Source: a virus
Lineage: Duplodnaviria; Heunggongvirae; Uroviricota; Caudoviricetes
Virus record (IMG/VR): IMGVR_UViG_3300017565_000017
Coordinates: 128,779-192,778 of that record
Direction: 5' to 3' (one strand)
DNA: 64,000 nucleotides
How positions within the stretch are numbered: the stretch's first letter is position 1; each line of letters starts with the position of its first letter. A program made the translations under genes and the position numbers. Below, piece after piece: positions 1,073 to 49,537 of the stretch. The notes under the pieces were generated by a model. It was not told the DNA's origin. It made no database searches and was given only the letters and a program-made list of their open reading frames with translations.

Positions 1073-1115
1073 GGTGTAATCTCCTAATGTAGCGGCCAGG
1101 GTAGGCCGTGGGGTA

Positions 1116-1144
1116 ATTATAGCCCTGTACGGGGGCCAGGGCAA
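1116..1144 (-). promoter_or_regulatory. sigma70-type promoter for amber ORF/tRNA
   Basis: TTGCCC-17 nt-TATAAT. Confidence 0.75.
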
Positions 1145-1147
1145 GCC

Positions 1148-1345
1148 CTATTTAAAGCGGGTAAGGCTCGGGAGGGCGGCTAGTCGCTGAGCTTTTTCTT
1201 CTGCGGTAAAGAGGTGAATACGTGACATCCGCATAGAGCTGGATTGTAGTGGAATTCGCTCATACACGGCGTTGCGCGCAGAACGTGCTTTTCGCCGATA
1301 GGCTTTCCACGTCGAGTGCTTATGACGAGCATGGCGCTGCTTCAT
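1148..1345 (-). CDS. small basic hypothetical protein
   Basis: ORF coupled to upstream gene (ATGA overlap); N-terminus MKQRHARHK. Confidence 0.6.
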   Translation of the reverse strand: MKQRHARHKHSTWKAYRRKARSARNAVYERIPLQSSSMRMSRIHLFTAEEKAQRLAALPSLTRFK

Positions 1346-1596
1346 AGGCGACCTTTGTATTTCACTAGGAACGGGATCGGTCCGGTGTTGTTCGCAATGA
1401 ACTGGCGCTGGTGCTCGCGGAACTGATGCATTTGAGCTTCATCGTTAGGATCTAGGCGCTTGCCTTCCAGTTGAGCCACCGCGAATTGCATGGCTCCAAT
1501 CCGGACTAACGTCTGAGCTCGTAGCTGGATTACGTAATTGTGGACGCAGTACGATTCCCACAACTGCCTCTTATGTCTACGATGGCGCTGCTTCAT
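1342..1596 (-). CDS. hypothetical protein
   Basis: ORF with ATGA overlaps; N-terminus MKQRHRRHK. Confidence 0.65.
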   Translation of the reverse strand: MKQRHRRHKRQLWESYCVHNYVIQLRAQTLVRIGAMQFAVAQLEGKRLDPNDEAQMHQFREHQRQFIANNTGPIPFLVKYKGRL

Positions 1597-1931
1597 AGGC
1601 TTCTCATGAACTCTTGAGTGAAGCTAATAACCCAGATACCCTCCTCGTGACGCTGCGTAGGATGGGCGTAGATGTCCGTGACAGTGTGAATGCCGTGATA
1701 CGTGGACAGGGGTCCCTTAGTGGCTTCAGTTGCCGACCCCGCTGCGTGACCTTCACCTAGCGGGTAGCGATTGATAAAGTCCATCGTCAGCGCTTGACCT
1801 GCGATCAGGACAATAGTGTCCTTGGCCGATGGGTCTGCCGCGTAGGTGTCGAATTCTGACCAGGACATAAGCCGATCTGCTCGGCAAATGCCCTGACCCA
1901 ACATGATTTGAATGTCTTCGTAAGTAGTCAT
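1593..1931 (-). CDS. hypothetical protein
   Basis: ORF in coupled gene string. Confidence 0.65.
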   Translation of the reverse strand: MTTYEDIQIMLGQGICRADRLMSWSEFDTYAADPSAKDTIVLIAGQALTMDFINRYPLGEGHAAGSATEATKGPLSTYHGIHTVTDIYAHPTQRHEEGIWVISFTQEFMRSL

Positions 1932-2173
1932 TTAGGCTCGTTGTGCGCAAAGATACGCGCGAGTAGATTTATACGGAACTCCGAAGCGCTTTTGTCAGCA
2001 GATGCTTCTACCGAAGCGTGGGCCATCTTCTTGAAGATTTCGGTGATATACGCATAGTTATCACCTTTACCTTCTTCCTTAGCCTTCGCCTTAGCGTCGC
2101 TCCATTTCTTCTCCAGAGAATCAATGGAACCTTTGCCTTCGGAGGCGAGTTTTTTGATGTAAGGTACGGGCAT
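1928..2173 (-). CDS. hypothetical protein
   Basis: ORF with CAGGAG SD. Confidence 0.7.
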   Translation of the reverse strand: MPVPYIKKLASEGKGSIDSLEKKWSDAKAKAKEEGKGDNYAYITEIFKKMAHASVEASADKSASEFRINLLARIFAHNEPK

Positions 2174-2209
2174 GGTCAGCTCCTGGTCAGTTAACCTTAT
2201 AAAACTGAC

Positions 2210-2428
2210 CTAGCGCCGCAAGCTCTGGACAATACGGTCCCAATCCTCACGGGGGAACCTGGAATGGAATTCATCGTCCAAACGCTTCCATTCCTTGTCC
2301 ACTTTGGTCTGGAGTTCCTTACGGTCCTTGGGGCTTTTGGCTTTGTCCAATTCCTCAAGGAGTTCGTAGAAGGCGCAACCCTGGCCGATAGTCGTACCCT
2401 TATACTGTCTGGATTTCTTGCCGGACAT
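2210..2428 (-). CDS. hypothetical protein (start re-assigned to MSGKKS)
   Basis: GAGGA SD 5 nt before ATG at 2428; ends TAG. Confidence 0.55.
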   Translation of the reverse strand: MSGKKSRQYKGTTIGQGCAFYELLEELDKAKSPKDRKELQTKVDKEWKRLDDEFHSRFPREDWDRIVQSLRR

Positions 2429-3008
2429 AACCATCCTCACGATTGCGAACGTTCTCGTGCATACGGGGCTTGCGATCACGTAGCATCGCAATAACCTCAT
2501 CGTGGTTCCACGGCAACATCAAGTTGTCAGGGCGGTTGTCCACACCAACATCGAACATGCGCCATTCGGGGAACCGAATCACGTGGCCGTGGCTGTGACC
2601 ATGTAGGTGGTAAGCCCCGTAGTGAGCGCCATCCCACTCGTAGATGGGAAAGTGGCAGTACACCATGTGGTCCCGACCGATCGAATTGTTGACAATAAGC
2701 GGAATGTGTACGTTCTCGAACAGTTCGTACAGGTAACGGTTCCGCTTAATGACCTTATCGTGATTGCCCGGAACGAGCTCGATCTTGCCTTGGAGGCGCT
2801 TGACCACCGCCTCAATTTGTTGGGGATTACCGAAGGAGAAGTCGCCAAGGAACCAGATAGTGTCCTCGGGCTTTACCACGGAATTCCAGGCTTCGATCAG
2901 GAGCTCGCCCATTTCCTCCACAGTTTCGCCCCGGCGCGTCGCCCGAGCGAACTTGAGGATGTTGTTGTGGTCAAAGTGTGTATCTGACGTGTACCACGTA
3001 TTAGCCAT
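2400..3008 (-). CDS. calcineurin-like metallophosphoesterase
   Basis: Motifs SDTHFDH, LGDF, GNHD, HFP, HGHSHG. Confidence 0.9.
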   Translation of the reverse strand: MANTWYTSDTHFDHNNILKFARATRRGETVEEMGELLIEAWNSVVKPEDTIWFLGDFSFGNPQQIEAVVKRLQGKIELVPGNHDKVIKRNRYLYELFENVHIPLIVNNSIGRDHMVYCHFPIYEWDGAHYGAYHLHGHSHGHVIRFPEWRMFDVGVDNRPDNLMLPWNHDEVIAMLRDRKPRMHENVRNREDGYVRQEIQTV

Positions 3009-4443
3009 CGTTATAACCTAATTGTGAATAGACTTGATCCACAGACTGCCTCAGGACCCACACGCGCTGCTCACTGTCCGTTAAGGACGTGAGCGCAGCA
3101 TTTAGCGGAGTACCTTTAGCCATCATTTGGTAGAGAGGCATCAGGTCTTCGCCATAGGCGTTGGAAAGCGCAGCCGTATCACATATGATTCTATTTACGT
3201 TTTGGGGTTCGGTACGACCAATCCGCTTAATAAGCGCATAGTAGCGAGACTTCATCTTGATTAGACGTCCGGTTTCCGGATCCTGGACCACAAAACCCTC
3301 GTGACGGCAGCGCTTCAGTTCCTGACGGAGATCACCCACCAGAGCCTTGCTCGTTCCCAACAGCTCCGCATTCTGTCGGTGAGGACGAAGTGCTATAGGG
3401 GTTGCCCCACTAGCTTCAACTACAATGTGTGGGTCCGTAGGGTCGCAAATCTCAAAGAGCCACGTACATAGACCTTCCGATTTGGCTTGGATACCCTCCA
3501 GATGCTCTTTCGCCATATCTACAAAGCGCGAATCCATAGAGCCTGTGGTAGAGAACAGAGGACCGTACTTAGGATGATCCGTATACGCGGCCATGAATCC
3601 GTTGACCTTGCGAGCGTAAGTAACGCACTGGTCATCCCGGAAGCGCACTACGGGCAAAATACCCAGCGCTTCCCCCTCGGCTGCCAGCTTCGTAAACGGA
3701 TGCACTACAATGTTCCAGTTCTCGTCCACCACAAGACCACGCATTTCGATAGCCGCGTAATCCCAGAGGTTGCGGTACATGCAATCGTGTGTGTACTTCA
3801 GGATGCGCAGGCCCGGATAGTTCTTAACTTGACGCACACTGACAAGCATACGATTGGTGTCCACCCACGCTTTGAGCTGGGCCGGGTCGTAAACATTGAA
3901 TTCGGGACCGGCTACAACAGACCGCACCTTTTCAAAGCCAATGTCGTCTGGAACCCACTGTACGTCTGCGTAATAACGGCGCAGGTCCGAAACATTGATC
4001 TTGGAATGCTGTTCGCGCACAGAGTCTTCGGGGACAGCTTTGTCCCCTCGGCCTACCTGACGAGCGATACACTCGTCGAGCGGCGTATTGACGACAATCG
4101 CCCTCAGCTCGTACCCATACTGATACTTGGCGTTCACATACTTCATGCGGCGCGCGGGCGTGAGGTTGGTGGAGTCTGCGATAATGCCGACACCGGAACG
4201 CACCAGATTGGCTAAGAATGTCTTGGCGTACTGGCCGTACTCGCGGTCATTCTCGGAGCAGTATCGGAACGCGTCCCGTGCGTCCGGAGTGCGCCCTGTG
4301 CGCTTCACATAGAACTCAGCGCGGAGGTCATCATGCGAATACACCTTGTAATCCGGGTGCTGCTCCAGCAGCTTCTGGCGAATCGTTGACTTACCAGAAC
4401 CGGCTACCCCGATCAATACAATGATCTCTTTACTCATGGTCAA
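3001..4443 (-). CDS. polynucleotide kinase (AAA_33 P-loop) fused to Rnl1-type RNA ligase
   Basis: N-terminal GVAGSGKST, D-x-x-R and DSTNL; C-terminal nucleotidyltransferase motifs KVNG (I), LFEI (III), EGFVV (IV), KMK (V). Confidence 0.85.
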   Translation of the reverse strand: MTMSKEIIVLIGVAGSGKSTIRQKLLEQHPDYKVYSHDDLRAEFYVKRTGRTPDARDAFRYCSENDREYGQYAKTFLANLVRSGVGIIADSTNLTPARRMKYVNAKYQYGYELRAIVVNTPLDECIARQVGRGDKAVPEDSVREQHSKINVSDLRRYYADVQWVPDDIGFEKVRSVVAGPEFNVYDPAQLKAWVDTNRMLVSVRQVKNYPGLRILKYTHDCMYRNLWDYAAIEMRGLVVDENWNIVVHPFTKLAAEGEALGILPVVRFRDDQCVTYARKVNGFMAAYTDHPKYGPLFSTTGSMDSRFVDMAKEHLEGIQAKSEGLCTWLFEICDPTDPHIVVEASGATPIALRPHRQNAELLGTSKALVGDLRQELKRCRHEGFVVQDPETGRLIKMKSRYYALIKRIGRTEPQNVNRIICDTAALSNAYGEDLMPLYQMMAKGTPLNAALTSLTDSEQRVWVLRQSVDQVYSQLGYNDG

Positions 4444-4645
4444 TATCCAGCTTATTTAAGAGATAAACTTTACTTTGAAGCTCAATTCGTAGCTCTTCGA
4501 TCTCAGCATCCTTACTCTCAAGTAGCCGAGCCACACTGTTTAGGAACGCCTCGGGGTCTTTGGAAGTACTCTGCATAACCCGTAGCTCAGTACGGTAAAA
4601 AGAGGTGGCTTGGTTCTGCGTGTTTTCAGTGTTTTCCTGTTCCAT
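4430..4645 (-). CDS. hypothetical protein
   Basis: ORF in operon. Confidence 0.55.
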   Translation of the reverse strand: MEQENTENTQNQATSFYRTELRVMQSTSKDPEAFLNSVARLLESKDAEIEELRIELQSKVYLLNKLDIDHE

Positions 4646-4662
4646 AGTCCACGACCGGTAGA

Positions 4663-4688
4663 GAAATAAAAACGCCCCTCAGGGCGTC
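4663..4688 (-). terminator. intrinsic terminator
   Basis: GACGCCC-TGAG-GGGCGTT followed by TTTATTT. Confidence 0.7.
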
Positions 4689-4694
4689 CTAGGG

Positions 4695-5072: not shown

Positions 5073-5442
5073 GGTTTGCTCCAACTAGAATTATTTCAGT
5101 TCTCCATTCATACCCAGGTATGTCCTCGTGTGCCTGGGAATGACGCTGCAACATGCAGCCCCGTTCATTAGAAAGGGCCATCAAGACCCGTATTTCAGGA
5201 AGACCTGAACGGACATCGTACAAGTAGTCAAAATGATGCCACAGCTTCAAATCGCCCGGCACGGCCAAATACTCTTCCCGGGTGATCGTGTGAAAATTGC
5301 GCGCTTGCAGGAGGGGCCATTGAACACGTGAATGCGGCTTATCCTCGACAAACCTTACATAACCCGGACGACCGAAATTGTCCACTATCCACATATACTG
5401 ACCAACGAGTGAGTTGATCTTCAGCTTGTTTTTATCCTGCAT
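5065..5442 (-). CDS. hypothetical protein (start re-assigned to MQDKNK)
   Basis: First ATG downstream of promoter with TAAGG SD. Confidence 0.6.
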   Translation of the reverse strand: MQDKNKLKINSLVGQYMWIVDNFGRPGYVRFVEDKPHSRVQWPLLQARNFHTITREEYLAVPGDLKLWHHFDYLYDVRSGLPEIRVLMALSNERGCMLQRHSQAHEDIPGYEWRTEIILVGANHE

Positions 5443-5511
5443 GCTGCGCCTTATGCGTGGGGTAAGGGCCAGCCCATAAAGCAACGGCCCCGCATTGGTG
5501 TATACGGGGCC

Positions 5512-5540
5512 ATTATAGCGCGTTTACGGCGTTTGCGTAA
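5512..5540 (-). promoter_or_regulatory. sigma70-type promoter in TC/GA-free tract 5436-5578
   Basis: TTACGC-17 nt-TATAAT. Confidence 0.6.
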
Positions 5541-5552
5541 CGGGGTAATGGG

Positions 5553-6296
5553 CTAACCTTTAGCCCGCTGTACGGCCTCCGCCAGCGTCTTGAACTCTTG
5601 AGGTGTTGGAATGCTGTCGAAGAGTTGATATCGGCTGAACCAGCGTTTCCGGGCGCGGTCTGAGAATAGAAACCGTGACCATTCAAGCACGCTAGATGCT
5701 GCCATCAGCAGATCTTGATTCACCGACATCGGTGGCGAGACTTCCACCGGGACTGCGTAAATGGCATACCGACCTTCCGGCAGATCTGGCATCCAGAAGG
5801 CGCGCACGAACTGCTTTTCCTTCTTATCTTGGCCTCCCACTATATTGTCAACGCGCACATAGCCCATGACTTTGTCGGAGGCGTCCTGCGGGATCTTATC
5901 CAGCAGAGAAACCTCGTTCATAAGGCGGCAGAGGCGTCGTGCGTACATCAGCTTGGAAGCAGTGGCACCGAAGTCTCCGGTGATCTCTGCGTAGACGGCT
6001 ACATCTGCAAAGAAATCGTCAGACTGCAAGCCAATCTTGCGCGGGTTGAGCTTGTCCACCGACACCTGCCACGGACCGGCGTCCGGAACAGGCGGCACCT
6101 TAGCCCCGAGACCTATACGGAACGCCTGGAACAGATCATACCGGGTGTGAGGCATTTCGTCAGCGACCTGGGCCGGGGTCTTATCCCCGTGCAGTTCAAC
6201 CCACTTCTCGGAGCCGAATTCCTTAAGGTCGCTTTCCAAGAGCTCTGTGTAGAGTTGGATAAAGAGAATTTCGTCTTGCGTGTATACGCGAGCCAT
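5553..6296 (-). CDS. hypothetical protein
   Basis: 247-aa ORF abutting upstream stop. Confidence 0.7.
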   Translation of the reverse strand: MARVYTQDEILFIQLYTELLESDLKEFGSEKWVELHGDKTPAQVADEMPHTRYDLFQAFRIGLGAKVPPVPDAGPWQVSVDKLNPRKIGLQSDDFFADVAVYAEITGDFGATASKLMYARRLCRLMNEVSLLDKIPQDASDKVMGYVRVDNIVGGQDKKEKQFVRAFWMPDLPEGRYAIYAVPVEVSPPMSVNQDLLMAASSVLEWSRFLFSDRARKRWFSRYQLFDSIPTPQEFKTLAEAVQRAKG

Positions 6297-9300: not shown

Positions 9301-9329
9301 ATTATACGCCAAAACGGCCCCCATGTAAA
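9301..9329 (-). promoter_or_regulatory. sigma70-type promoter in TC/GA-free tract 9277-9366
   Basis: TTTACA-17 nt-TATAAT. Confidence 0.8.
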
Positions 9330-13281: not shown

Positions 13282-13487
13282 CCTTGCGTAAGGCACAAAT
13301 TTATGTAGGGGCAAAAACATATTATACCGCAAATAAGTGTAATACGGCGGCTAAATGTGCTTTAAACCCGCGTAAAAGCCCTAGGGGCCGTTTTGTTACG
13401 TTTAGGGTACTACCCTAGGTTAACCCCGTTTTGCGGCCTTGCGCGCCCGTTTTGCGGCTGCCGCTGCTAGTGCCGCTTTGCTGGCAT
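13282..13487 (-). promoter_or_regulatory. 206-nt TC/GA-free promoter tract, -10 TATAAT at 13321-13326
   Basis: Manual scan; tract ends at the SD. Confidence 0.65.
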
Positions 13488-16264: not shown

Positions 16265-16340
16265 AATAAGCTCCGAGGGTCGACCCGGATTCCAGGACGA
16301 CCCTCTTATTTTGGGTTATAGGCTAGGGGTTACAGTATGT

Positions 16341-16370
16341 ATTATACCGCAGTTTGCAGGTTTGCGGTAA
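16341..16370 (-). promoter_or_regulatory. promoter in TC/GA-free tract 16305-16386
   Basis: TATAAT at 16341-16346 overlapping the upstream stop. Confidence 0.55.
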
Positions 16371-16662
16371 TTTGCGTAAGCCACGGAAGTAGTTCTTGGA
16401 CCTTCTTGTCAAAAGCGTTCACGTAAGCCTTGAAGTCCTCTTCGTAGGTGGTATCAGGATCGTAATACTCCAGGCTTAGGCCCAACGTGTCCAGACACGC
16501 ATGAACTTGCTTCGACATCTTGAAACCGATCTCGAATTTGGTTTCCCACGAGGCGTCTTCCAGATTGAACAGCAGCATAGTCAAGCGATGCAATTCCAGA
16601 AGCTCATGGGCCGCTCTCTTGATCGAGTCTGTGTACAGTTCCTCGGTGTTTTCATCTACCAT
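16342..16662 (-). CDS. hypothetical protein
   Basis: Coupled ORF. Confidence 0.65.
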   Translation of the reverse strand: MVDENTEELYTDSIKRAAHELLELHRLTMLLFNLEDASWETKFEIGFKMSKQVHACLDTLGLSLEYYDPDTTYEEDFKAYVNAFDKKVQELLPWLTQITANLQTAV

Positions 16663-18549: not shown

Positions 18550-18558
18550 ATTATACCA
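18550..18558 (-). promoter_or_regulatory. extended -10 promoter in TC/GA-free tract 18515-18599
   Basis: TGG-TATAAT. Confidence 0.6.
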
Positions 18559-20689: not shown

Positions 20690-20808
20690 CCTTTATTACG
20701 GTTTGCGCTAGGGCGCGGGGTAGTGGGGTATTACACGCCTAATTATACAGGGCCGCGCCGTAAAACACCATAGCCAGCGCGGCCCTGTTGCGCAAAAATT
20801 ACACAAGT
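20690..20808 (-). promoter_or_regulatory. TC/GA-free promoter tract, TATAAT at 20742-20747
   Basis: Manual scan; tract ends at AAGGAG SD. Confidence 0.65.
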
Positions 20809-21062
20809 CGCTTGAGAGGCTCGCGGAAGCTCTGAGCGCGACTCGTGCCTGACACAGCCAAGGGCTCCGGCTGGTTGCTGGCGCTAAAAGCGCGGGCGCA
20901 AGGGCGGCAAACGCCCGTAAGCGTTTGCGTATGCGTTTGGCCGTAGGCGGTACGGGTGCGGGTAGCGCTAAAGCCTAAAACCGCCTTACGGGCGCATTTG
21001 GGGCATTGCAGGCGCGGGGCCAGGGTAACGGCTACGGTGCGGTTAATAGGGGTTACGGTCAT
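20799..21062 (-). CDS. small zinc-finger protein
   Basis: CPKC...CRPC. Confidence 0.5.
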   Translation of the reverse strand: MTVTPINRTVAVTLAPRLQCPKCARKAVLGFSATRTRTAYGQTHTQTLTGVCRPCARAFSASNQPEPLAVSGTSRAQSFREPLKRLV

Positions 21063-21492: not shown

Positions 21493-21578
21493 AGTAACAC
21501 CAGGGTTAAGGGTAAGGGGCCAGTGTAGCACGTATAAACACACCGCCCGGATTATATTCCGGCCCGTACCCGCTTACC

Positions 21579-25557: not shown

Positions 25558-25770
25558 TTAGGGTTGTCGGCTGAGCTTTTCGAGCTCACGGCAGAGAGTG
25601 CCAATTTTCCCCTGATGCTGGCGAATCTGCTTGAAGCGCACAGGAACAGGGAGCTTGGGGTCTTGCAAATCTACCAGGATATTCGTTTGGAACTGAAGGA
25701 TGCGAGCCTGAATCGCCAAGGCCCGTACGACCTTGTCGGTGGCAGACTGCTGTTCGGGGGGTTGCTGCAT
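25558..25770 (-). CDS. hypothetical protein
   Basis: First ORF after promoter tract. Confidence 0.55.
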   Translation of the reverse strand: MQQPPEQQSATDKVVRALAIQARILQFQTNILVDLQDPKLPVPVRFKQIRQHQGKIGTLCRELEKLSRQP

Positions 25771-25876
25771 GGGGTTGCGCCTATACGGTTAGGGCGGTGG
25801 GGTAAGGGCCAGTATACAACAAATACGGCCCTATTTGGTGGGGGCTTGCTTTTTATTTTTGGGCGGGTAGTAAACG
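25755..25876 (-). promoter_or_regulatory. TC/GA-free promoter tract, TATACT at 25811-25816
   Basis: Manual scan. Confidence 0.55.
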
Positions 25877-26940: not shown

Positions 26941-26969
26941 ATTATACGGCACGGCCCTAGCCCCGGCAA
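26941..26969 (-). promoter_or_regulatory. sigma70-type promoter in TC/GA-free tract 26903-26994
   Basis: TTGCCG-17 nt-TATAAT. Confidence 0.75.
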
Positions 26970-33261: not shown

Positions 33262-35646
33262 TTAAACTCCAAACAGGTTCTTGCGGAACTCGACGTCTTC
33301 GTTCATCAGGCGATTGAAGTTGTCGTGTAGCTCTGCCGTGGCTGGCGGCTTAACCCGGATAAGACGGCGAGTAGCTGCATCCATAGCCAGAGTGCGCAAC
33401 TGAGGAGCGTTAATCTCACCCCAGCCCTTGATGTGCTTAATGTGCGTCTTGGCCGGAGCCCCCGCTGCATCAAGCTTCTTACGCACCTCTGACAGAGTAT
33501 CACCCGAGTACATCTGGTTCTTGTACATAGCATAGAACTCAGGAGCGTCTACCACGTACACCATACCCAGCTCAAACAATTGCGGCATGAACTTGTAGAA
33601 CAAGGTCAAGAGCAGTGTATTGATGTGGCAGTTGGAACTCACATGACCCGAAGGAGTAACGAAGTTCCCCATTCCCTTAACCGACAAGCAGTACACTGGC
33701 ACGGCTTCTTTGAGTCGCTGAAGCTTGGATTTCGATACGATCGTAAACGGTTTCGTCTCTCGCTTATTAGCTTTCGCGCCAGGGGTGAAAATGTGGTCCC
33801 CACTCGTAATGTCGCGCGCACGCTTCCACGCAATATCGTGCGCTTCATCAAGGATGACTTTTCCTTCACTTACTTCCCACTGCTTGAAGTTGGTGATTGC
33901 CCACTTGTGATCTGGATCCACCTTGTACTTGGTGCCACCGATCTCCATGGAGACAATCTCATCCGTGTGTCGAACCTGCATTGCCGTAGCAGGCATGAGC
34001 TTAATCGAGTTACCCGTCCATGAGGGGACCTTGAACTTGACGCCGGAAGTGACTAGATCCTCAATCTGAACTTGGCGGAGAATCTCCTCACCTTCCAACT
34101 GAATCGTAATCAGAGTGCCTGCAACAAACGGGCCGTCTGGGTCCGGGTCAGCGAGGCAGATAATCTTGCCGACGTTGAGCTTGGAATACGGGTCAGATGC
34201 ACGAGCATCGAACCCCATAGCCGCCAGAATGTGGGCCACCGACTCCGATTCCAGGGCGCGGGCATCCGTGGACTTAGCCGCGTTAAGAATCTTACCCTTA
34301 AGCGGGAGAATGGCTTGCCAGCCAAACCGAGCGCTCTTGGCCGTACCGCCTGCCGAGTCACCCTCAACCAGGAACAGTTCCCGATCTTCTGGACGACCCT
34401 CAGTTGCCTTAGCGAACTTCGTAGGCATCTGCTTGCTGGCCTTGGCAATCTCCTTCAGAGCGTTCTTACTTGCCCGGAACTTAGACTTCAGCTCGTTAAT
34501 GGCAGAACTACGCTCACAGATCTTGGCAGCAAGGCCCGGGTTCTTGGCAAAGAACGCCTTAGCCTGGGTATACACCCACTCTTCGAAGTCAGCTCCCATA
34601 CGCTCGTCGGTAAGCTGTACCTTGGCCTGAGAACTGAATTTGGCACCGCTGAGTTTCGCGTTAACGATACCCACGAGGCCTTCACGGAAGTCTAGTGCCG
34701 TGAACACTTGCTTCTTCTTGATGTGCTCCTTAACTGCACGGAACAGGCCACTCTGGACCGAGTTCACGTGAGTGCCGCCCTGACTGTTGGTCAAACCGTT
34801 AGTAGCACCCCGCAAGTCTTGCCCGTCGTAGTTTGTGAACGATACCGCAATATCGCACAGAGGGCTAGTTGCCTCAAATGCCAGACGCTCAGACAGAGGC
34901 GTGGCCTTCAGCAATTCAACGCGCTTATCAAGGTACTCACGCGGACCCACCTTGGAGTAGTACTCCTTAGTATCGCCCTTGTACGTAACCTGGATCTTGA
35001 ACTTCGGGTTGAGGTAGGCAGTGAGCTCCGACCATTCGTGGAGCATAACCGCCGGGAAGGTCTTGGCACTGAAAATCTTCGTGTCAGGTACGAAATGGAT
35101 TAGGGTGCCGCTTGCAATCTTACCGAAGGGGTTATCGGTCGGTGGGCGCTTGGACTCAACGCCCTTCGAAACCAGCTTGCCTTCAGAGAACTCGATATAG
35201 TGCCACTTGCCTTCAAAGAAGGTCCACACCTGGAACTGTGTAGACAGAGCGTTAGTACCTTTAGCACCGACGCCGTGAACACCACGAGCCGTCTCGTAGG
35301 CATCACTATGCTTACCCGAAGTATGCAGATTGCCGAAAATGGCCTGCATCGTCGGGAGCTTGGATTTGACAGGCTTCCCGTCAACTTCCACGGTTGTTTC
35401 TTTCACACCTTGCGGAACGCCAGTACCGTCGTCGAGAACCCAATAGCCGGTTGCGTCTACGTGAGCCTTGGCAAACGTGGCACGACCAGCACCGAATTCG
35501 TCAACGACGTTATCCAGCAGTTCCCGCAGGATCAGAAAGAGGCCATCCTCACCGGTATCCCCGATGTACATCGAGGGGTGTTCCCGGACTTGGTTCAGGC
35601 CGGACAGTAATCGAATACTGTCGCTTGTGTAGGCTTTGCGCGCCAT
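33262..35646 (-). CDS. gyrB: type IIA topoisomerase B subunit (GyrB/ParE-like) containing an intein
   Basis: HPSMYIG, ELLDNVVDE, DDGTG, GVHGVG, VEGDSAGG, PLKGKILN, DPDPDG|intein|CHI-x-TLLLT, IKGWGE; start set to ATG 35646 because 35700 lies inside a tRNA. Confidence 0.93.
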   Translation of the reverse strand: MARKAYTSDSIRLLSGLNQVREHPSMYIGDTGEDGLFLILRELLDNVVDEFGAGRATFAKAHVDATGYWVLDDGTGVPQGVKETTVEVDGKPVKSKLPTMQAIFGNLHTSGKHSDAYETARGVHGVGAKGTNALSTQFQVWTFFEGKWHYIEFSEGKLVSKGVESKRPPTDNPFGKIASGTLIHFVPDTKIFSAKTFPAVMLHEWSELTAYLNPKFKIQVTYKGDTKEYYSKVGPREYLDKRVELLKATPLSERLAFEATSPLCDIAVSFTNYDGQDLRGATNGLTNSQGGTHVNSVQSGLFRAVKEHIKKKQVFTALDFREGLVGIVNAKLSGAKFSSQAKVQLTDERMGADFEEWVYTQAKAFFAKNPGLAAKICERSSAINELKSKFRASKNALKEIAKASKQMPTKFAKATEGRPEDRELFLVEGDSAGGTAKSARFGWQAILPLKGKILNAAKSTDARALESESVAHILAAMGFDARASDPYSKLNVGKIICLADPDPDGPFVAGTLITIQLEGEEILRQVQIEDLVTSGVKFKVPSWTGNSIKLMPATAMQVRHTDEIVSMEIGGTKYKVDPDHKWAITNFKQWEVSEGKVILDEAHDIAWKRARDITSGDHIFTPGAKANKRETKPFTIVSKSKLQRLKEAVPVYCLSVKGMGNFVTPSGHVSSNCHINTLLLTLFYKFMPQLFELGMVYVVDAPEFYAMYKNQMYSGDTLSEVRKKLDAAGAPAKTHIKHIKGWGEINAPQLRTLAMDAATRRLIRVKPPATAELHDNFNRLMNEDVEFRKNLFGV
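33631..34131 (-). mobile_element. 167-aa mini-intein, class 3 type (Pro1; W/C/S triad), no endonuclease
   Basis: Block A PFVAGTLI, block B KVDPDHKW, block F VPVYCLSV, block G GHVSSN|C. Confidence 0.85.
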
Positions 35647-35674
35647 TAATCTACCTTCATCTTGGTTACTTCGA

Positions 35675-35749
35675 TGGTGGACCCGGTGTGACTTGAACAC
35701 ACACTCTTGGAATTATGAGTTCCCTGCTTCACCTTTAAGCTACAGGTCC
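35675..35749 (-). tRNA. tRNA with CAU anticodon (elongator; Ile2-like or Met)
   Basis: GGACCTG TA GCTT AAAGGTG AAGC A GGGAA CT-CAT-AA TTCCA AGAGT GTGTG TTCAAGT CACAC CGGGTCC A CCA; G1-C72 so not an initiator; C4-G69 and C5-G68 as in Ile2. Confidence 0.9.
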
Positions 35750-41657: not shown

Positions 41658-41810
41658 CCCTTACGGTTGGGGTTTAGGTAGGCGCGTAGGGGTACACGCC
41701 GGTATACGTATTATATACCCGCGCCCCGTAAAACGCTATTACGCTTATGTAACTATAGCCCTAGCGGTACGGGTAAGGGCTACATAATACCCCGTTGTTT
41801 GTAGTAATGG
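41658..41810 (-). promoter_or_regulatory. 153-nt TC/GA-free promoter tract, TATAAT at 41710-41715
   Basis: Manual scan; tract ends at GGGAG SD. Confidence 0.65.
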
Positions 41811-42203: not shown

Positions 42204-42214
42204 GCTCTTTCCTG

Positions 42215-42865: not shown

Positions 42866-42908
42866 AGAAAATCCTATTGTGGGGTGGATACCGATATATT
42901 TACGGTAC

Positions 42909-42928
42909 GGTCCGGGTTTCCCCGGACC
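42909..42928 (-). terminator. GNRA hairpin after the Nampt-like gene
   Basis: GGTCCGGG-GAAA-CCCGGACC; no U tract. Confidence 0.45.
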
Positions 42929-42934
42929 CTGGAC

Positions 42935-44719: not shown

Positions 44720-44721
44720 GG

Positions 44722-45615: not shown

Positions 45616-45965
45616 GTAGCACTCCTGAAGAATTCGTTGTAGTGGGTGTCGCTTAGAACTAGATGCTGACCTTCACCCATCGAGATCACCCAGTCGCCGG
45701 GGCTTACGAACAGCTTACCCTTCTGAGAGTCAATGACCCCCATCACGTTGTGGGTCCACCACGGGTAGTCCTTCGAGCACCCGCACGTACCGAGGCCCGC
45801 AGACACTTCATCGTAGGACGTGGGGCGCACAGACGGATGGTCGTTGCATTCCCGTGCAAGCTTGGGGCGTCCCTTACCCTGAGCAGCATCTTTTGGGAGA
45901 GCGTTCCAGCGTATAGCCAGAAATGGAGTGTTCGGTTCAATCGTCACAGGCACGGCAGTAATCAT
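45612..45965 (-). CDS. hypothetical protein
   Basis: Coupled ORF. Confidence 0.65.
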   Translation of the reverse strand: MITAVPVTIEPNTPFLAIRWNALPKDAAQGKGRPKLARECNDHPSVRPTSYDEVSAGLGTCGCSKDYPWWTHNVMGVIDSQKGKLFVSPGDWVISMGEGQHLVLSDTHYNEFFRSAT

Positions 45966-46258
45966 TTCTCAACCTCCATGAGGATATAAATCTTGCCCGT
46001 GTCGAAATACACCGACTGGCGGACGATCTTGGTGTAGCCCTGCCGCTGAGCCCACGACTGAGGGGAAATCTCAGAAATGGTAGATTGTGTGCGGGAAGCC
46101 GACGCTCCATCCACACGGCACTGGCCGACGCCAATCTGTTCGCAAACCAGTAGAGCTCGCCCTTCCTGAATTTCCAGCTTAGGGGTTTGCTGGGGCGCGG
46201 CGGTCGCGGGCAGTGCTAGGAACAGAGGCAACAACAGCCCGAACAGTTTCAAGTTCAC
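45962..46258 (-). CDS. exported small protein
   Basis: Signal peptide KLFGLLLPLFLALPATA-APQ; start uncertain. Confidence 0.55.
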   Translation of the reverse strand: MNLKLFGLLLPLFLALPATAAPQQTPKLEIQEGRALLVCEQIGVGQCRVDGASASRTQSTISEISPQSWAQRQGYTKIVRQSVYFDTGKIYILMEVEK

Positions 46259-46670
46259 GATCAATTTCTCCAAGCATCCAATCAATCCAGGCCATGCGGG
46301 TCTGGCGCATCTTGTCACGATATTCGTGTTCCGGCAGGTGGGCAACCAAATCCAGATGGATATTCTTCATCCAGACATCCAAGTACACGTAGTCTTTATA
46401 GCGAACACGGCCCTTGGGAGTCGTACCGACCTTCACCCGGAGCATGTCAAGAATCCAATCCCGTACCCGATGGCGCGATTTTTCAAAACGGTCGTAGATT
46501 ACAGAGTACGGCCCAGCTTGCTGATGGCTCCGGAGTTCGCTCGATGCGCGAAAGAGCGCAAAGCAAATGTATCGCTCCGCGCCCGATTCGATGTGGGTCC
46601 TGGCCTGTTTCAGCATCTGCTGGTCAGCTCGGAGATCGCTTTCGGTAAGAACCGGGGATTTCTTGCTCAC
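46179..46670 (-). CDS. hypothetical protein
   Basis: Coupled ORF. Confidence 0.6.
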   Translation of the reverse strand: MSKKSPVLTESDLRADQQMLKQARTHIESGAERYICFALFRASSELRSHQQAGPYSVIYDRFEKSRHRVRDWILDMLRVKVGTTPKGRVRYKDYVYLDVWMKNIHLDLVAHLPEHEYRDKMRQTRMAWIDWMLGEIDRELETVRAVVASVPSTARDRRAPANP

Positions 46671-47104
46671 GAACGTCTCCGGAGTAGACCCTGGCGCTCA
46701 TCCGCGAGATCAGAGTCAGTCATATATTGAGGCCCCATCTTATTACCGACGGGGCCAACTCGGGCCTGCATTTCCTTGGTACGCTGGAGGGCGGCGGCTT
46801 CGCGCTCTGCCATTTCACCATCGTATTTCGGTTCTGCGACCACCTTGGGGGCCGGGTCGGCCTTGGCCGGTAGGCGCTGGTTAATCGCCATATTAAGGCG
46901 CGGGCCAAAGCGCATCAATTGCGCCGTTTGTGCGGCCTTTTGGCGGATACCTGGGGCCGCAGTAGTGCCGGGGCGGGCAAAGCCCCCGGTAAGGCTACGC
47001 AAGCGCTTTAGGTTTTGCGCCAGAGCCTTATCAAGGACTTCATGCTCCCGGAGCTTGCGCTCCCGATCCCGTTGTGCCAGCAATTTCTGTCGTTTTGATG
47101 CCAT
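46667..47104 (-). CDS. basic hypothetical protein
   Basis: GGAAAG SD; Arg/Ala-rich. Confidence 0.65.
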   Translation of the reverse strand: MASKRQKLLAQRDRERKLREHEVLDKALAQNLKRLRSLTGGFARPGTTAAPGIRQKAAQTAQLMRFGPRLNMAINQRLPAKADPAPKVVAEPKYDGEMAEREAAALQRTKEMQARVGPVGNKMGPQYMTDSDLADERQGLLRRRS

Positions 47105-47615
47105 ATCGTTCTTTCCATTTATTTAGTTCTTCTTGTACGCCTGCATACGTCTCACGGATTTTACGTTGTTCTTCCTGGTACGCGGCTAGGCGCTTGTCGG
47201 ACTCCTTCCGCAGCCACACTTCGCGCTTGTCGTCATCGAGGTAGAGGCGGCGTCTGACGAATTCGTGAAACGTCAAATCAGGCATAACATCCGACAAGTG
47301 GAGAAAGCGCTGATAGCGCTCTTGCCCACGGGTCAACTTGGGGCGCTTGGCGCTGTGCGTCTTCACATACTGGCGGCCAGCTTCCGTGACAAAGAACCAC
47401 GGGCTACCGCCCGAGATAGCGGTGGCCGGACGCTCTTTCATGAGCCCGAGCTTCAGCATCTGCTGAATGTACTGCCAATCGTGGTGGCCTTCGCTCGCAA
47501 CAAAGTGATTGCGAAACCCTTCCGGGCGGCTCGGGTCACGGCTTTCACCGTATTCGTCAAAGCCGATGGTATGTTGGAGGATCGACAGGAACCGCTTGTT
47601 GAATTCAGTCGTCAC
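47040..47615 (-). CDS. phage hypothetical protein (winged-helix-like)
   Basis: RNHFVA...M-x-x-x-GLM...FFVTEAGR...LTRGQERYQRFL. Confidence 0.6.
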   Translation of the reverse strand: MTTEFNKRFLSILQHTIGFDEYGESRDPSRPEGFRNHFVASEGHHDWQYIQQMLKLGLMKERPATAISGGSPWFFVTEAGRQYVKTHSAKRPKLTRGQERYQRFLHLSDVMPDLTFHEFVRRRLYLDDDKREVWLRKESDKRLAAYQEEQRKIRETYAGVQEELNKWKERYGIKTTEIAGTTGSGAQAPGA

Positions 47616-47859
47616 GGGTATAAGCCTTGAGAAACGCCATCACGTTGGGATGCTGCTCGCTCTTGGTCGTATCCGACTGGCAGTCATGCTCACTTACGGT
47701 GATGGCACCGTTAGTAGCCAACTGCACTTCCATGACATACGTAGGAAACGTAAAGCGGAGCAACTGCTCGGAACCTGCCAGACTCGCATTGGAAAACACG
47801 ACACCGATAGCCATGGCTTCACGGCTATTAAGGATGTCGCCTACTCGTTCAGAAAGCAT
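47605..47859 (-). CDS. hypothetical protein
   Basis: ORF in operon. Confidence 0.5.
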   Translation of the reverse strand: MLSERVGDILNSREAMAIGVVFSNASLAGSEQLLRFTFPTYVMEVQLATNGAITVSEHDCQSDTTKSEQHPNVMAFLKAYTRDD

Positions 47860-47863
47860 GCGC

Positions 47864-48214
47864 TTAACCTCCGATGAAGATCATGTTGTGGTGGACCGAA
47901 ATCGGCACGTAGGCACCCATAGCCGACAGACCCGGCTTCTCGTAGTACTCGGTGAGGAACTCGTTGGCCTGCTTGGGGGTAATTTTCAGGCAGCCGCGCA
48001 CCCGATAGTTCACGTCGGTGGGAGTTCCATGGGCGACGCTCGGGACTTCATGACGAACATGGAGCAGTAGAGCTCGGCCCGTACCATGGGTCGCAAACTT
48101 CAGGATCTTGCGCGTTTCGGTAACGGAGGCGATACCCTGGACCGAAGCTTCTGCCTCGCTCTGGGGCAGAACGGGCAGCGTGTCAAGGGTGAGGATTTGG
48201 TTGGGAGTGGTCAT
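47864..48214 (-). CDS. hypothetical protein
   Basis: First gene after promoter. Confidence 0.6.
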   Translation of the reverse strand: MTTPNQILTLDTLPVLPQSEAEASVQGIASVTETRKILKFATHGTGRALLLHVRHEVPSVAHGTPTDVNYRVRGCLKITPKQANEFLTEYYEKPGLSAMGAYVPISVHHNMIFIGG

Positions 48215-48253
48215 GCAGAACCTATACAGCTAGGGGGTTTACGGGTTAGGCAA

Positions 48254-48282
48254 ATAATACAGCGCCGGGGCCGGTATGTAAA
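48254..48282 (-). promoter_or_regulatory. sigma70-type promoter in TC/GA-free tract 48219-48297
   Basis: TTTACA-17 nt-TATTAT. Confidence 0.7.
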
Positions 48283-48285
48283 GGG

Positions 48286-48756
48286 TTAAGCGGGCTGAAC
48301 GGCGTATCGCTTCTGGAAGTCTTCAACGTTCACGAAGGATTTGAATTCGTCCAATGACTGGGTGTCGTGAAGCTCAATGGAGCCATCCGCCATACGCCGA
48401 ATCGCCATGCGACCCGCACCTACGTAAGTGACGCCGCTGACAGAAATGGCGGTAACGAGGCGTTCCAGGGTTTCCGGAGTCAGGAAATCCAAGCAGTCTT
48501 CCCGAGCATACGCCTTGCGGAAGTTTTCCAGGGAGGAGAAAAGCTCATCCTGGCTGCGGAAGCCACCTACGGGGACGCGGGTAATGGATACCGACTGGTC
48601 ACCGGGCAGACGGGTCACTTCATAAGTGTGAGTGTCGTCCACAAATGCGATGAGTTGCTGACCTCCCCAGGGGAGCAGAGTAAGCATATCGGCAAGGTGG
48701 AGGGCGAGGGAACGCGTGAGAAGAATGCCGACTTCGGGGTCGCGGGACAGACTCAT
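48286..48756 (-). CDS. hypothetical protein
   Basis: AGGAT SD; first gene after promoter. Confidence 0.7.
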   Translation of the reverse strand: MSLSRDPEVGILLTRSLALHLADMLTLLPWGGQQLIAFVDDTHTYEVTRLPGDQSVSITRVPVGGFRSQDELFSSLENFRKAYAREDCLDFLTPETLERLVTAISVSGVTYVGAGRMAIRRMADGSIELHDTQSLDEFKSFVNVEDFQKRYAVQPA

Positions 48757-48793
48757 TTGAATATCCTATACGGTTAGGGTTTACGGTGTAGCT

Positions 48794-48822
48794 ATTATAT
48801 AGCGGCTGGCCCATAAACGCAA
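48794..48822 (-). promoter_or_regulatory. sigma70-type promoter in TC/GA-free tract 48765-48868
   Basis: TTGCGT-17 nt-TATAAT. Confidence 0.7.
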
Positions 48823-48854
48823 ACGGGGCAAGCCCTTTTTATAGGCTTGCCCCG
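48822..48854 (-). terminator. hairpin terminator immediately upstream of promoter
   Basis: CGGGGCAAGCC-TATAAAAAG-GGCTTGCCCCG then TTTG. Confidence 0.65.
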
Positions 48855-48859
48855 GTGTT

Positions 48860-49537
48860 TTAGGCGCGACCGATAGCGCGGTTCAGCATCGCAACAGTCT
48901 TGGGGAAGTTATCCGAATCCAGGACATGCAGCAGATACAGAACTTGGCGCTTGCGCAATTGGTCTTGCGACTGTACTTCGTTCTTGACGTCGATATCGTC
49001 TTTGCCGTCAGCGAGACGATCAGCCCACGCCTTAAAGCGGGGTTCCAGGCCGTTTGCCGGGTCTTCCGATTCTTGCGACTTGCCGTTGAGGCTAATGTAT
49101 TCCTCAGGCTGGTCAACCTTACCATCTTGACCAACGATGGTGACGTTAGCCATGGCGATAGTGCGGGCGGAACCGGCTGCGGCGACGTTATCTTCCTTGG
49201 CTTTCAGGCGAGCGTGCTCACGCTTGGCTTCCGGCTTTGCCAGAAGGCGCGTGGCCGTCTGGTCGTCGATCAGAACAATCAGCTCCTTAAATAGAGCATC
49301 GCGGAATTCATTGCTCGTAAGAATTTGCTCACGTGTAAACTTGATGTTAACGCGCTGAGGGAGCCACGTTTGTAGGATCACCAGAGGATCCGTACGGTCA
49401 CCACGTAGTTGCTGGATACCGATAATAATATTACCGGCGTCTCGAATACGTGAGCGCTTACTGTTGTTTAGGACCCAAATGGGTTCGTTGGGTTTTTGAG
49501 CCTCAACGTCGAAAATACTTAGAGTCTTGACTGCCAT
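48860..49537 (-). CDS. hypothetical protein
   Basis: AAGGA SD; 225 aa. Confidence 0.75.
   Translation of the reverse strand: MAVKTLSIFDVEAQKPNEPIWVLNNSKRSRIRDAGNIIIGIQQLRGDRTDPLVILQTWLPQRVNIKFTREQILTSNEFRDALFKELIVLIDDQTATRLLAKPEAKREHARLKAKEDNVAAAGSARTIAMANVTIVGQDGKVDQPEEYISLNGKSQESEDPANGLEPRFKAWADRLADGKDDIDVKNEVQSQDQLRKRQVLYLLHVLDSDNFPKTVAMLNRAIGRA

Follow-up and report, generated by a model that had tools for sequence, protein, structure and literature searches.

TC/GA-free islands at the host-type promoters of an uncultured jumbo phage with 5-hmdU pathway genes

The metagenome-derived genome of an uncultured jumbo phage (242,859 bp, ~243 kb) contains ~50 host-type promoter regions, each of ~100 bases, in which neither TC nor GA occurs, and such TC/GA-free promoter islands appear to be new to the literature. 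The avoidance is real and stronger than first reported in an earlier note on a 64,000-nt stretch of this genome (the window). All twelve runs given there are present with exact coordinates and lengths and hold zero TC and zero GA, and two others had been overlooked (20867-21059, 193 nt; 46947-47023, 77 nt). TC/GA-free runs that reach 77 nt or more number 14 in the window, against 0.17 expected under a geometric model that uses the TC/GA frequency of the window itself (0.131 per nt), and the same model predicts 6e-9 runs of at least 200 nt per window. The note's coding density of 9-11 TC/GA per 60 nt was slightly high (mean 7.8) and its probability of 1e-14 for an empty 200-nt run is closer to 1e-12 per start position, corrections that leave the conclusion of TC/GA avoidance unchanged. 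The genome-wide count proposed in the note found TC/GA-free runs of 96 nt or longer 25 times (0.05 expected) and runs of 70 nt or longer 54 times, whereas each dinucleotide class of similar frequency (AA/TT, AC/GT, AG/CT, CA/TG, and CC/GG) has 1-6 of the latter and 0-1 runs above its own E=0.05 threshold in the whole genome. The TC/GA-free runs of the window are as follows, with orthologues in the relative L039 where given.

1083-1168, minus strand: island with -35 TTGCCC (1139-1144), 17-nt spacer and -10 TATAAT (1116-1121), ending at AGGag
5436-5578, minus strand: island of 143 nt with -10 TATAAT (5512-5517), spanning the 5'UTR and reaching into the start codon; orthologue L039 20095-20239
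9277-9366, minus strand: island with upstream hairpin, TTTACA-like -35 and -10 TATAAT (9301-9306); orthologue L039 16517-16614
13282-13487, minus strand: longest island, 206 nt, with -10 TATAAT (13321-13326), its upstream part overlapping the tail of a small upstream ORF; orthologue L039 12881-13058 (61% identity, one GA gained)
16305-16386, minus strand: island preceding the gene for NAD-dependent DNA ligase, with -10 TATAAT (16341-16346); orthologue L039 9872-9960
18515-18599, minus strand: island with -10 TATAAT (18550-18555), ending at CAGagg
20690-20808, minus strand: island with TTTACG-like -35 and -10 TATAAT (20742-20747); orthologue L039 5425-5504
20867-21059, minus strand: run of 193 nt with no recognizable promoter, covering ~64 codons at the start of an 87-aa CxxC...CxxC ORF (20799-21062); conserved in L039 5144-5327
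21490-21550, minus strand: shorter run of 61 nt with -10-like TACACT (21522-21527) and a 5'UTR that stops at ATG
25755-25876, minus strand: island with -10 TATACT (25811-25816) and 5'UTR motif CCCTAACCGTATAGG, reaching ~8 codons into the gene; orthologue L039 1-96
26903-26994, minus strand: island with -35 TTGCCG (26964-26969), 17-nt spacer and -10 TATAAT (26941-26946)
41658-41810, minus strand: island of 153 nt with -10 TATATAAT (41710-41717), ending at AAGGGag
46947-47023, minus strand: run of 77 nt within coding sequence, with no clear promoter
48219-48297, minus strand: island with TTTACA-like -35, -10 TATTAT (48254-48259) and a 5'UTR ending in GTATAGG
48765-48868, minus strand: island with upstream hairpin, -35 TTGCGT (48817-48822), -10 TATAAT (48794-48799) and 5'UTR motif CCCTAACCGTATAGG

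Each of the twelve runs first listed carries a -10 box, as had been claimed; it lies on the gene strand (minus) and reads TATAAT in nine and TATATAAT, TATACT, or TATTAT in the rest. Across the genome, ~45 of 61 islands contain a sigma70-like promoter composed of TTGC or TTTAC, a spacer of 16-18 nt, and TATAAT. The -35 element is never TTGACA, a hexamer with an internal GA, and is TTGC in 25 of 28 aligned promoters. Alignment to the -10 boxes confirms that the islands are centered on promoters, with both TC and GA falling to approximately zero from -50 to +45 and returning to normal beyond, a pattern confined to TC/GA; counts around the promoters likewise bear out the statement that TG/CA is not avoided. 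Measured from the first -10 base, the closest TC/GA has a median position of -46 on the upstream side and +43 on the downstream side; relative to the start site, the empty zone extends from ~-58 to +31. A bimodal distribution is seen among TTG-N19-21-TAnAnT matches solely in this genome and solely for TC/GA, ~25-30 of them having at most three TC/GA in 90 nt and the remainder 7-16, like chance matches. Promoters of tRNA genes are purged as well. The islands are depleted symmetrically on both strands, which indicates that the constraint acts on double-stranded DNA.

The islands share the recurrent short motifs TTGC, TATAAT, CCCTAACC, and GTATAGG, as would be expected if all derived from a single promoter cassette that happened to be devoid of TC/GA. 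Beyond these motifs they are dissimilar, however, and the -10 and -35 elements make up a small fraction of each 80-200-nt island. Islands are kept in two relatives whose ligases are 75% and 48% identical to that of this phage, and the seven islands compared with L039 are 19-39% diverged, with a single TC/GA created among 160 substitutions, although simulated substitutions nearly always create some (joint simulated P <= 1e-22). This test rejects the artefact of ancestry or composition in practice, leaving it an extremely small probability, and the islands are under strong purifying selection.

Outside promoter zones, TC/GA frequency is normal (observed/expected, o/e, 1.03-1.07). Coding DNA shows no TC avoidance, TTC and ATC accounting for 72% and 60% of their codon families and TC at codon junctions having an o/e of 1.12, and intergenic DNA of the late regions is undepleted. 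These distributions bear on the idea that early leader and intergenic RNA lacks UC and GA to evade an endoribonuclease from which ribosomes shield coding RNA. Islands do span the entire 5'UTR, often halting exactly at the Shine-Dalgarno sequence or start codon; the earlier observation that several stop at the Shine-Dalgarno GA holds for AGGag, AAGGaa, AAGag, AAAGGag, AAGGGag, and TAGGat, and GA-free AGG-type ribosome-binding sites (GTATAGG) are in use within islands. Against such an RNA-level constraint, the upstream half of each island (-60 to +1 of the start site) is purged equally, tRNA-gene promoters are affected too, and two RNA specificities (UC and GA) would be required in place of one duplex motif. 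Short untranslated spacers within operons of the island regions, furthermore, show only a mild reduction in TC/GA (0.095 per nt, vs. 0.13 genome-wide and 0.128 for spacers of late regions) and have GGAG-type ribosome-binding sites, and we regard this explanation as distinctly improbable.

The window was also correctly said to encode genes of a 5hmdU pathway, comprising a hydroxymethylase-type thymidylate synthase (TS) homologue and an aGPT-Pplase1/HMUDK_hel gene; these belong to a 5-hmdU module with two further members, a dUTPase_2-family protein and a candidate P-loop kinase of divergent sequence. The module and its neighbors are as follows.

58086-58982, minus strand: dUTPase_2-family (MazG-like) NTP pyrophosphohydrolase, a candidate for clearing dTTP/dUTP in the 5-hmdU pathway
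58979-59950, minus strand: phage-encoded sigma-factor-like protein (phrog_17569)
60400-61720, minus strand: two HAD_PNKP-type phosphatase genes (60400-60855; 61253-61720) beside the hydroxymethylase
62295-63359, minus strand: thymidylate-synthase-family protein of pyrimidine hydroxymethylase type, a probable dUMP hydroxymethylase (44% identity to the M6 homologue, 43% to phiRSL1 ORF230)
63393-64000, minus strand: 3' part of aGPT-Pplase1/HMUDK_hel (PF18723); whole gene G000 192171-193205
G000 231923-233215, outside the window: candidate P-loop kinase, divergent

The gene at the window's end encodes not the P-loop kinase but the aGPT-Pplase1/HMUDK_hel protein, which matches PF18723 (E=2.8e-40) and has homologues in phiW-14 gp72, M6 gp55, and SP10 gp186 (C-terminal half). 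The kinase candidate lies elsewhere, grouped in phrog_800 with M6 gp54 and phiW-14 gp37 (E=1.5e-14); its BLAST match to M6 gp54 has E=5e-5, its assignment as a kinase is weak by Pfam (PF18748, E=1e-4, below the curated cut-off), and homologues are found in the island-bearing clade only. The cluster of HAD_PNKP-type phosphatases and hydroxymethylase is conserved in relatives L045 and L046.

Thymidine hypermodification from 5hmdU is dinucleotide-specific, in TG/TC contexts (PMC6449724, PMC13458397), and the phage T-dioxygenase 5mYOX97 prefers NTC (PMC13229309). Transcription by E. coli RNA polymerase is raised on 5hmU templates and lowered on kinase-treated 5hmU templates (PMC6457204). The explanation we favor, to which we assign about an even chance, is that a TC-specific mark, likeliest a thymidine modification made by the 5-hmdU module, is excluded from host-RNA-polymerase promoters by removal of TC. 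The recognition context would be TC in duplex DNA, whichever strand carries it (hence TC or GA when a single strand is read). The mark itself would most likely arise after replication, through modification of 5-hydroxymethyluracil by the phage's own enzymes, and we infer that the phage DNA is modified in this context. The ~50 sigma70-type promoters, needed by the unmodified host RNA polymerase, would stay mark-free through deletion of every TC from both strands between ~-58 and +31 of the start site. The mark may block initiation and not elongation, and the island-free late regions may be read by a polymerase with a phage sigma-like factor, for which the 58979-59950 product is a candidate. TC would be the sole T-dinucleotide context that the sigma70 consensus can avoid, merely by changing TTGACA to TTGCNN; a TG-specific mark would be impossible to keep out of TTG, which could explain the absence of islands from TG-modifying phages.

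From the symmetry of the islands by itself, any of the four bases in TC/GA could be the marked one, and a GA context has been reported for some 7-deazaguanine phages. The marked base might thus be the G of GA (7-deazaguanine), or the A of GA or C of TC (methyltransferase). Six-frame searches of the complete genome, four of five of which matched control genomes while the TET/JBP model hit no control, found no gene for TGT/DpdA, for N6/N4, C5, or Dam-type methyltransferases, or for TET/JBP. The 7-deazaguanine alternative raised in the earlier note is therefore unsupported, TGT/DpdA being absent, and modification of another base is altogether very improbable.

The proposed TC-specific thymidine mark also meets objections. 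Like phiW-14, SP10, M6, ViI, and SH-Ab 15599, this phage has the hydroxymethylase-type TS homologue, aGPT-Pplase1/HMUDK_hel, a P-loop kinase-like protein, and the dUTPase_2-family pyrophosphatase; unlike the known 5-hmdU phages, it has a divergent kinase candidate and lacks an ADDT/aGPT-Pplase2 transferase gene, which counts against the reading. Nor do the tested reference 5-hmdU phages have promoter islands free of their own target dinucleotide. No dinucleotide-free islands of any class were found in six comparison phages, five with an aGPT-Pplase1 gene (M6, phiW-14, SH-Ab 15599, SP10, and phiRSL1, the first four with documented thymidine hypermodifications), and promoter exclusion is thus no general consequence of thymidine hypermodification. 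The earlier proposal of modification-exclusion islands accordingly stands in part, favored by promoter-centered, duplex-symmetric, selectively maintained islands and by the presence of 5-hmdU genes in the genome, and opposed by these island-free hypermodified phages. Thousands of genic TC sites, moreover, remain for the elongating polymerase to cross, the purge often extends to the start codon, past the classical polymerase footprint, and the 193-nt coding island has no detectable promoter.

In a different, rather unlikely explanation, some DNA-acting protein that has nothing to do with thymidine hypermodification targets TC/GA, and promoters are cleared since hits are most damaging there. Host or phage might encode it, as a nickase or nuclease with short specificity, a DNA deaminase specific for TC, or a roadblock or packaging protein that binds tightly. 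The constraint is the same on both strands and very strict: at ~45 promoters, ~95 nt hold zero sites, which suggests that one site is already harmful, and other phages with the thymidine hypermodification module are island-free. Among the relatives, L040 also has islands and L041 and L043 have smaller ones, and TC/GA is depleted across the whole genome of the relative L040/L045 (o/e 0.56 and 0.75-0.81). The depletion extends to synonymous sites (GTC makes up 7% of Val codons and CTC 3% of Leu codons) and codon junctions (o/e ~0.5), and TT and AA are raised. This resembles target avoidance or a TC-to-TT mutational footprint, and would be unexpected were a TC mark purely protective. Coding DNA of the present genome, however, is entirely without TC/GA depletion, so mutational pressure cannot be the cause here, and a nuclease or deaminase would be equally harmful to coding DNA. 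The zone fits polymerase-promoter contacts and not the ~13-nt open bubble, and no such protein has been identified.

As in restriction-site and motif avoidance in phages, selection removes a short sequence because something acts on it; classical avoidance, however, is genome-wide and concerns 4-8-mers, whereas here a dinucleotide is fully removed from ~100-nt promoter zones only. Vertebrate CpG islands are promoter-sized zones that escape a genome-covering, dinucleotide-specific DNA modification, yet they retain the target dinucleotide, and at raised frequency, and are shielded by trans-acting factors, whereas in the phage promoters the target dinucleotide itself is erased. Ralstonia phage phiRSL1 (Mieseafarmvirus), unlike this phage, has no TC/GA-free islands, excess of sigma70-like matches, or detectable P-loop kinase-like homologue, and carries an additional sulfotransferase/NDP-sugar/APS-kinase cluster that is missing here. 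With phiRSL1 and related jumbo phages, the present phage has in common ~100 proteins (25-60% identity) and the syntenic cluster of hydroxymethylase, aGPT-Pplase1, and HAD phosphatases.

Direct counting reproduced, at their exact coordinates, all of the runs devoid of TC and GA that an earlier note on this DNA had listed, and added two that were absent from its list, at window positions 20867-21059 (193 nt) and 46947-47023 (77 nt). The frequency of TC and GA in the window is 0.131 per nucleotide, at which a geometric model predicts 0.17 TC/GA-free runs of at least 77 nt; 14 are present. The same count, which the note had proposed for the whole genome, again gives runs in excess of expectation. 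The window corresponds to positions 128779-192778 of a single-contig virus record of 242,859 bp. In this record 54 TC/GA-free runs are 70 nt or longer and 25 are 96 nt or longer, 0.05 being the number expected at the latter length. Five other dinucleotide classes of like frequency yield 1-6 runs of 70 nt or more, and 0-1 that exceed the corresponding threshold for the class. The TC/GA-free islands make up 2.5% of the genome and are confined to three stretches (0-14, 80-178 and 231-243 kb), leaving the blocks for structure and replication at 14-80 and 178-231 kb without any.

When the 61 islands of at least 60 nt are read in the direction of the local genes, approximately 45 contain a sigma70-like promoter pointing to the downstream gene, composed of TTGC or TTTAC and, after a spacer of 16-18 nt, TATAAT or TATACT, and by their hexamers and spacing these are predicted to be bacterial promoters of the sigma70 type. 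TTGC is the -35 box in 25 of the 28 promoters aligned with a 17-nt spacer, with TTTAC as the alternative. TTGACA is never used; it contains GA and would break the rule, and a generic TTGACA/TATAAT scanner overlooks the island promoters because their -35 box is free of GA. All promoter pattern matches beyond the number expected by chance lie within islands. An independent pattern that permits TC and GA in the spacer and flanks gives bimodal counts per 90 nt, with ~25-30 matches holding 0-3 of these dinucleotides and the rest 7-16, as for the ~36 chance matches. Averaged over 38 promoters, TC and GA are both near zero from -50 to +45, counted from the first base of the -10 box, and at their normal level outside this interval, and no other dinucleotide shows the same dip. 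On the same scale, the nearest TC or GA of each promoter has a median position of -46 on the upstream side and +43 on the downstream side, and the purged zone converts to approximately -58 to +31 relative to the predicted start site. The footprint of RNA polymerase holoenzyme on the DNA it contacts is close in size to this zone.

A GC hairpin, TC/GA-free like the rest, stands at the start of many islands, and many run on through a 5'UTR bearing CCCTAACC and GTATAGG, the latter a GA-free, AGG-type ribosome-binding site. The leader motif CCCTAACC, of which 24 of the 40 genomic copies fall in islands, may be a GA-free ribosome-binding module, or alternatively a regulator or processing site; in island 5'UTRs (for example window 25770-25800 and 48770-48790) the leader motif often takes the form CCCTAACCGTATAGG, followed by 6-10 nt and then ATG. 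The predicted promoters of three islands have tRNA genes downstream.

Coding DNA is not depleted: Phe is encoded by TTC in 72% of cases and Ile by ATC in 60%, TC at codon junctions has an observed/expected (o/e) ratio of 1.12, and the o/e over the whole genome is 1.03-1.07. About 29% of the T in this genome is followed by C. Short untranslated intra-operon spacers in the same regions, which use GGAG-type sites, are mildly lower in TC/GA (0.095 per nt, compared with 0.128 in late-region spacers and 0.13 genome-wide), and TC and GA are freely present in late-region intergenic DNA and terminators. The constraint therefore belongs to promoters; it is not a feature of non-coding DNA or of untranslated RNA as a whole. 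A constraint acting on the RNA is very improbable, since the sequence upstream of +1 is purged too and the intra-operon spacers are only mildly depleted. TC and GA disappear to the same extent from one strand, which is most simply read as one motif, TC, recognised on both strands of the duplex. Avoidance of GATC or GANTC (Dam/CcrM) was considered and rejected, with 1117 and 902 copies present genome-wide and islands lacking any TC, as was avoidance of UV photoproducts, because TT is enriched inside islands.

Relatives were reached by protein searches and contig look-ups, which gave a graded series of uncultured phages; a megablast search of phage records with the ligase gene returned no match, and IMG/VR searches with single proteins (aGPT-Pplase1 and terminase) gave no confirmed relatives. 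For the relative L039, whose ligase is 75% identical, 22 kb of DNA is syntenic (67-76% nucleotide identity) and has seven TC/GA-free runs of at least 79 nt at orthologous positions; one further relative is 85% identical. Between the seven orthologous island pairs, 160 substitutions plus indels have created a single TC/GA. Simulated random substitutions keep an island clean with P of 1.4e-2 to <5e-5 per island (joint P <= 1e-22), which excludes shared ancestry or chance as the cause of the islands and leaves that explanation practically no weight. Promoter-containing islands of 167, 133, 123 and 112 nt are also found in the more distant L040 (ligase 48% identical; GC 48%), and smaller promoter islands in the relatives L041 and L043; none were found in L042 and L044. 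Within the L040/L045 lineage (JGI 3300075763, Ga0596950_0000013), TC o/e is 0.56 and GA o/e 0.75-0.81 throughout, synonymous and codon-junction positions included (junction o/e ~0.5; GTC 7% of Val codons), with TT and AA raised. The pressure on TC/GA in this lineage reaches beyond promoters.

One long island of the studied phage lies within a gene:

Window 20799-21062, minus strand: 87-aa CxxC...CxxC (zinc-ribbon) ORF, conserved in L039

The first ~64 codons of this ORF, which hold the 193-nt run, are without TC or GA and the last 22 contain 11, and the L039 counterpart (5141-5398; 64% amino-acid identity) shows the same split. A promoter search within the coding island detected none.

The studied phage is a phiRSL1-like jumbo phage, with ~100 proteins common to both at 25-60% identity. 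The right end of the window is a conserved cluster, listed here together with one gene outside the window (G000 denotes coordinates of the complete record, L047 those of the kinase-candidate locus):

Right-end cluster: dUTPase_2-family (MazG-like) pyrophosphatase
Right-end cluster, window 58979-59950: sigma-like protein
Right-end cluster: two HAD_PNKP phosphatases
Right-end cluster: thymidylate-synthase-family protein, closest solved relatives pyrimidine hydroxymethylases
Window 63393-64000, partial (whole gene G000 192171-193205): PF18723 gene
G000 231923-233215 (L047 3924-5216), outside the window, minus strand: candidate P-loop 5-hmdU DNA kinase, 430 aa

The thymidylate-synthase-family protein (PF00303, E=1.5e-18; phrog_5131, E=7e-101) has pyrimidine (CMP) hydroxymethylases, ahead of ThyA, as its best solved relatives, and is 44% identical to its M6 homologue and 43% to phiRSL1 ORF230, annotated as a deoxyuridylate hydroxymethyltransferase; it is a putative dUMP hydroxymethylase. 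The PF18723 match (E=2.8e-40, profile positions 4-274 of 281) points to the aGPT-Pplase1/HMUDK_hel component of a 5-hmdU system. Pfam names this family '5-hmdU DNA kinase helical domain', and the homologues of the protein are phiW-14 gp72, the C-terminal half of SP10 gp186 and M6 gp55, which belong to the aGPT-Pplase1 family and are distinct from the P-loop kinases M6 gp54 and phiW-14 gp37 (PMC5889632). By this homology (Table 3 of PMC5889632), a reading of the PF18723 protein as the kinase was rejected. Its gene is free-standing in the studied phage and kinase-fused in SP10 gp186, and M6 gp55 is dispensable in vitro (PMC8989533). Sequence searches of solved structures gave no match to the aGPT-Pplase1 protein, and relaxed-threshold Pfam, PHROGs and ESM Atlas searches returned nothing for the small ORFs adjoining its gene. 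L040 has this Pplase1-hydroxymethylase-HAD cluster too, and on the same contig.

Residues 9-191 of the kinase candidate match phrog_800 at E=1.5e-14, a family matched by M6 gp54 and phiW-14 gp37 at 2e-39 and 7e-46, and BLAST gives 5e-5 to gp54 and 4e-4 to gp37. A G-x-YE...GGLD motif is common to the three proteins; the score against PF18748 is 18.9 bits, below the cut-off of 27, and the C-terminal half is unrelated and of low complexity. Homologues of the candidate were found only in the close, island-bearing clade, and none was detectable in phiRSL1. Directly upstream of its gene (G000 233216-233520) lie a GA/TC-rich repeat array of GCAGGAGA units and a TAAATA-like box.

No match to the transferase ADDT/aGPT-Pplase2 (PF18724) was obtained at E<=1 in a six-frame search of the whole genome, nor did BLAST queries with every ORF from M6, phiW-14 and SH-Ab 15599 give a transferase hit; as a positive reference, M6 gp51 scores 1.4e-46 against this family. 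Of the 5hmdU/thymidine hypermodification pathway that the earlier note had taken as established, the hydroxymethylase-type thymidylate synthase homologue and the PF18723 gene are present and the transferase was not found, and on this gene content a 5-hmdU pathway is probable. The note's other option, a 7-deazaguanine in place of G in GA, receives no support, as the complete genome has no TGT/DpdA-family match (PF01702), a model that matched 14 of 14 control genomes. DNA methyltransferase genes were not found in the genome, nor was a Tet_JBP dioxygenase (PF12851), whose model matched no control genome either. That another modified base within the dinucleotide underlies the islands is highly improbable, as no supporting genes were found.

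Six comparator phages, tested as whole genomes, comprised phiRSL1, M6, phiW-14, SH-Ab 15599 and SP10, all with an aGPT-Pplase1 homologue, and BcepSauron, without one. In none of them do runs lacking a dinucleotide class, whichever the class, exceed expectation, and none has a bimodal promoter signal; promoter exclusion is therefore clade-specific and does not extend to thymidine-hypermodifying phages in general. TG is the reported modification context of SH-Ab 15599 and phiW-14 (PMC13458397, PMC6449724), and a BcepSauron-like phage shows no modification by HPLC (bioRxiv 10.64898/2026.10.21.760668). This clade specificity may arise because TC can be removed from a sigma70 promoter through the fourth -35 base alone; TG, as part of TTG, cannot be removed, which could account for the lack of islands in TG-modifying phages. 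Beside its aGPT-Pplase1 gene, phiRSL1 has sulfotransferase-like, nucleotidyltransferase, NDP-sugar pyrophosphorylase-like and APS-kinase genes (AB366653.2 165261-171498; L003 5678-11915 in its segment), a cluster absent from the studied phage and suggestive of a different thymidine derivative, which may be sulfated or glycosylated. For phiW-14 (L023-L030), which has putrescinyl-thymine at TG, the longest TG/CA-free stretch is 36 nt, where a geometric model expects ~34 runs of at least 37 nt, so that the target dinucleotide is unusually evenly spaced, the reverse of the island pattern; SH-Ab 15599 shows similarly even TG/CA spacing except for one 112-nt run.

In the best-supported model, which we consider to have about an even chance of being correct, TC on either strand would specify a DNA mark, most likely a kinase-initiated derivative of 5hmU, that would interfere with initiation by unmodified host polymerase. 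It is graded no higher because the transferase is missing, the comparators lack islands, and two facts do not follow from it, namely the 193-nt TC/GA-free coding stretch without a promoter and the genome-wide depletion in L040/L045. A TC-directed protein unrelated to such a mark, whether nuclease, deaminase or roadblock, is an unlikely though not negligible source of the constraint. Published in vitro transcription work fits a TC-specified mark: 5hmU templates raise transcription by E. coli polymerase up to 3.5-fold, bulky 5-substituents abolish it, and 5-HMUDK treatment of 5hmU templates reduces it to ~10% of the 5hmU level (PMC6457204). Specificity for a dinucleotide is known from other systems, namely TG/TC for 5hmdU-derived bases and NTC for the dioxygenase 5mYOX97 (PMC13229309). 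Extended to the biology of this uncultured phiRSL1-like jumbo clade, a picture we advance tentatively and rate just short of an even chance, TC-specific hypermodification would be genome-wide and TC erased on both strands at ~50 footprint-sized zones, where alone unmodified host sigma70 polymerase would start on incoming DNA, with the marked DNA transcribed later, by polymerase that phage factors have redirected.

Context-specific hypermodification, motif avoidance and sigma70 promoters are all known already. Full-text literature searches on motif depletion limited to promoters of modified phage genomes, and on the promoters of phiRSL1, returned nothing similar, and, as far as can be told, there is no earlier description of a dinucleotide that selection has removed completely, and only from promoter-sized zones. 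If the TC-mark explanation holds, this would be, to our knowledge, the first known virus to handle in cis the conflict between genome-wide hypermodification and its need for the host polymerase, through loss of the motif from its promoters. The context read by thymidine-modifying enzymes, the block of bacterial polymerase initiation in vivo by hypermodified thymidines, and the separation of early and late transcription in phiRSL1-like jumbo phages would all become testable. The sequence context of a DNA modification could then be deduced from genome sequence alone, and anomalous dinucleotide-free runs would provide a purely computational screen for modification contexts in uncultured phages. 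Even under another mechanism, a dinucleotide fully purged under strong selection from ~50 promoter zones has no description in the searched literature.

A search for a late-promoter motif yielded only scattered TAAATA-like boxes. TAAATA(G)-like boxes occur in several regions upstream of late genes (for example G000 180712-180775, upstream of 208729-209805 and upstream of 64063) and resemble T4 late promoters; it may be these boxes that are recognised with the help of the phage sigma-like protein. The genome has 25 tRNA genes, 24 of them in a cluster at G000 111-129.5 kb. At the margin of this cluster lies a tRNA with anticodon CUA (window 686-761, minus strand; G000 129464-129539), a predicted amber suppressor labelled 'tRNA-Pyl' by ARAGORN. 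A tRNA-Met gene (window 35675-35749, minus strand) overlaps the 5' end of the longest GyrB-like ORF (33262-35700), and the GyrB-like gene probably starts further downstream than this ORF.
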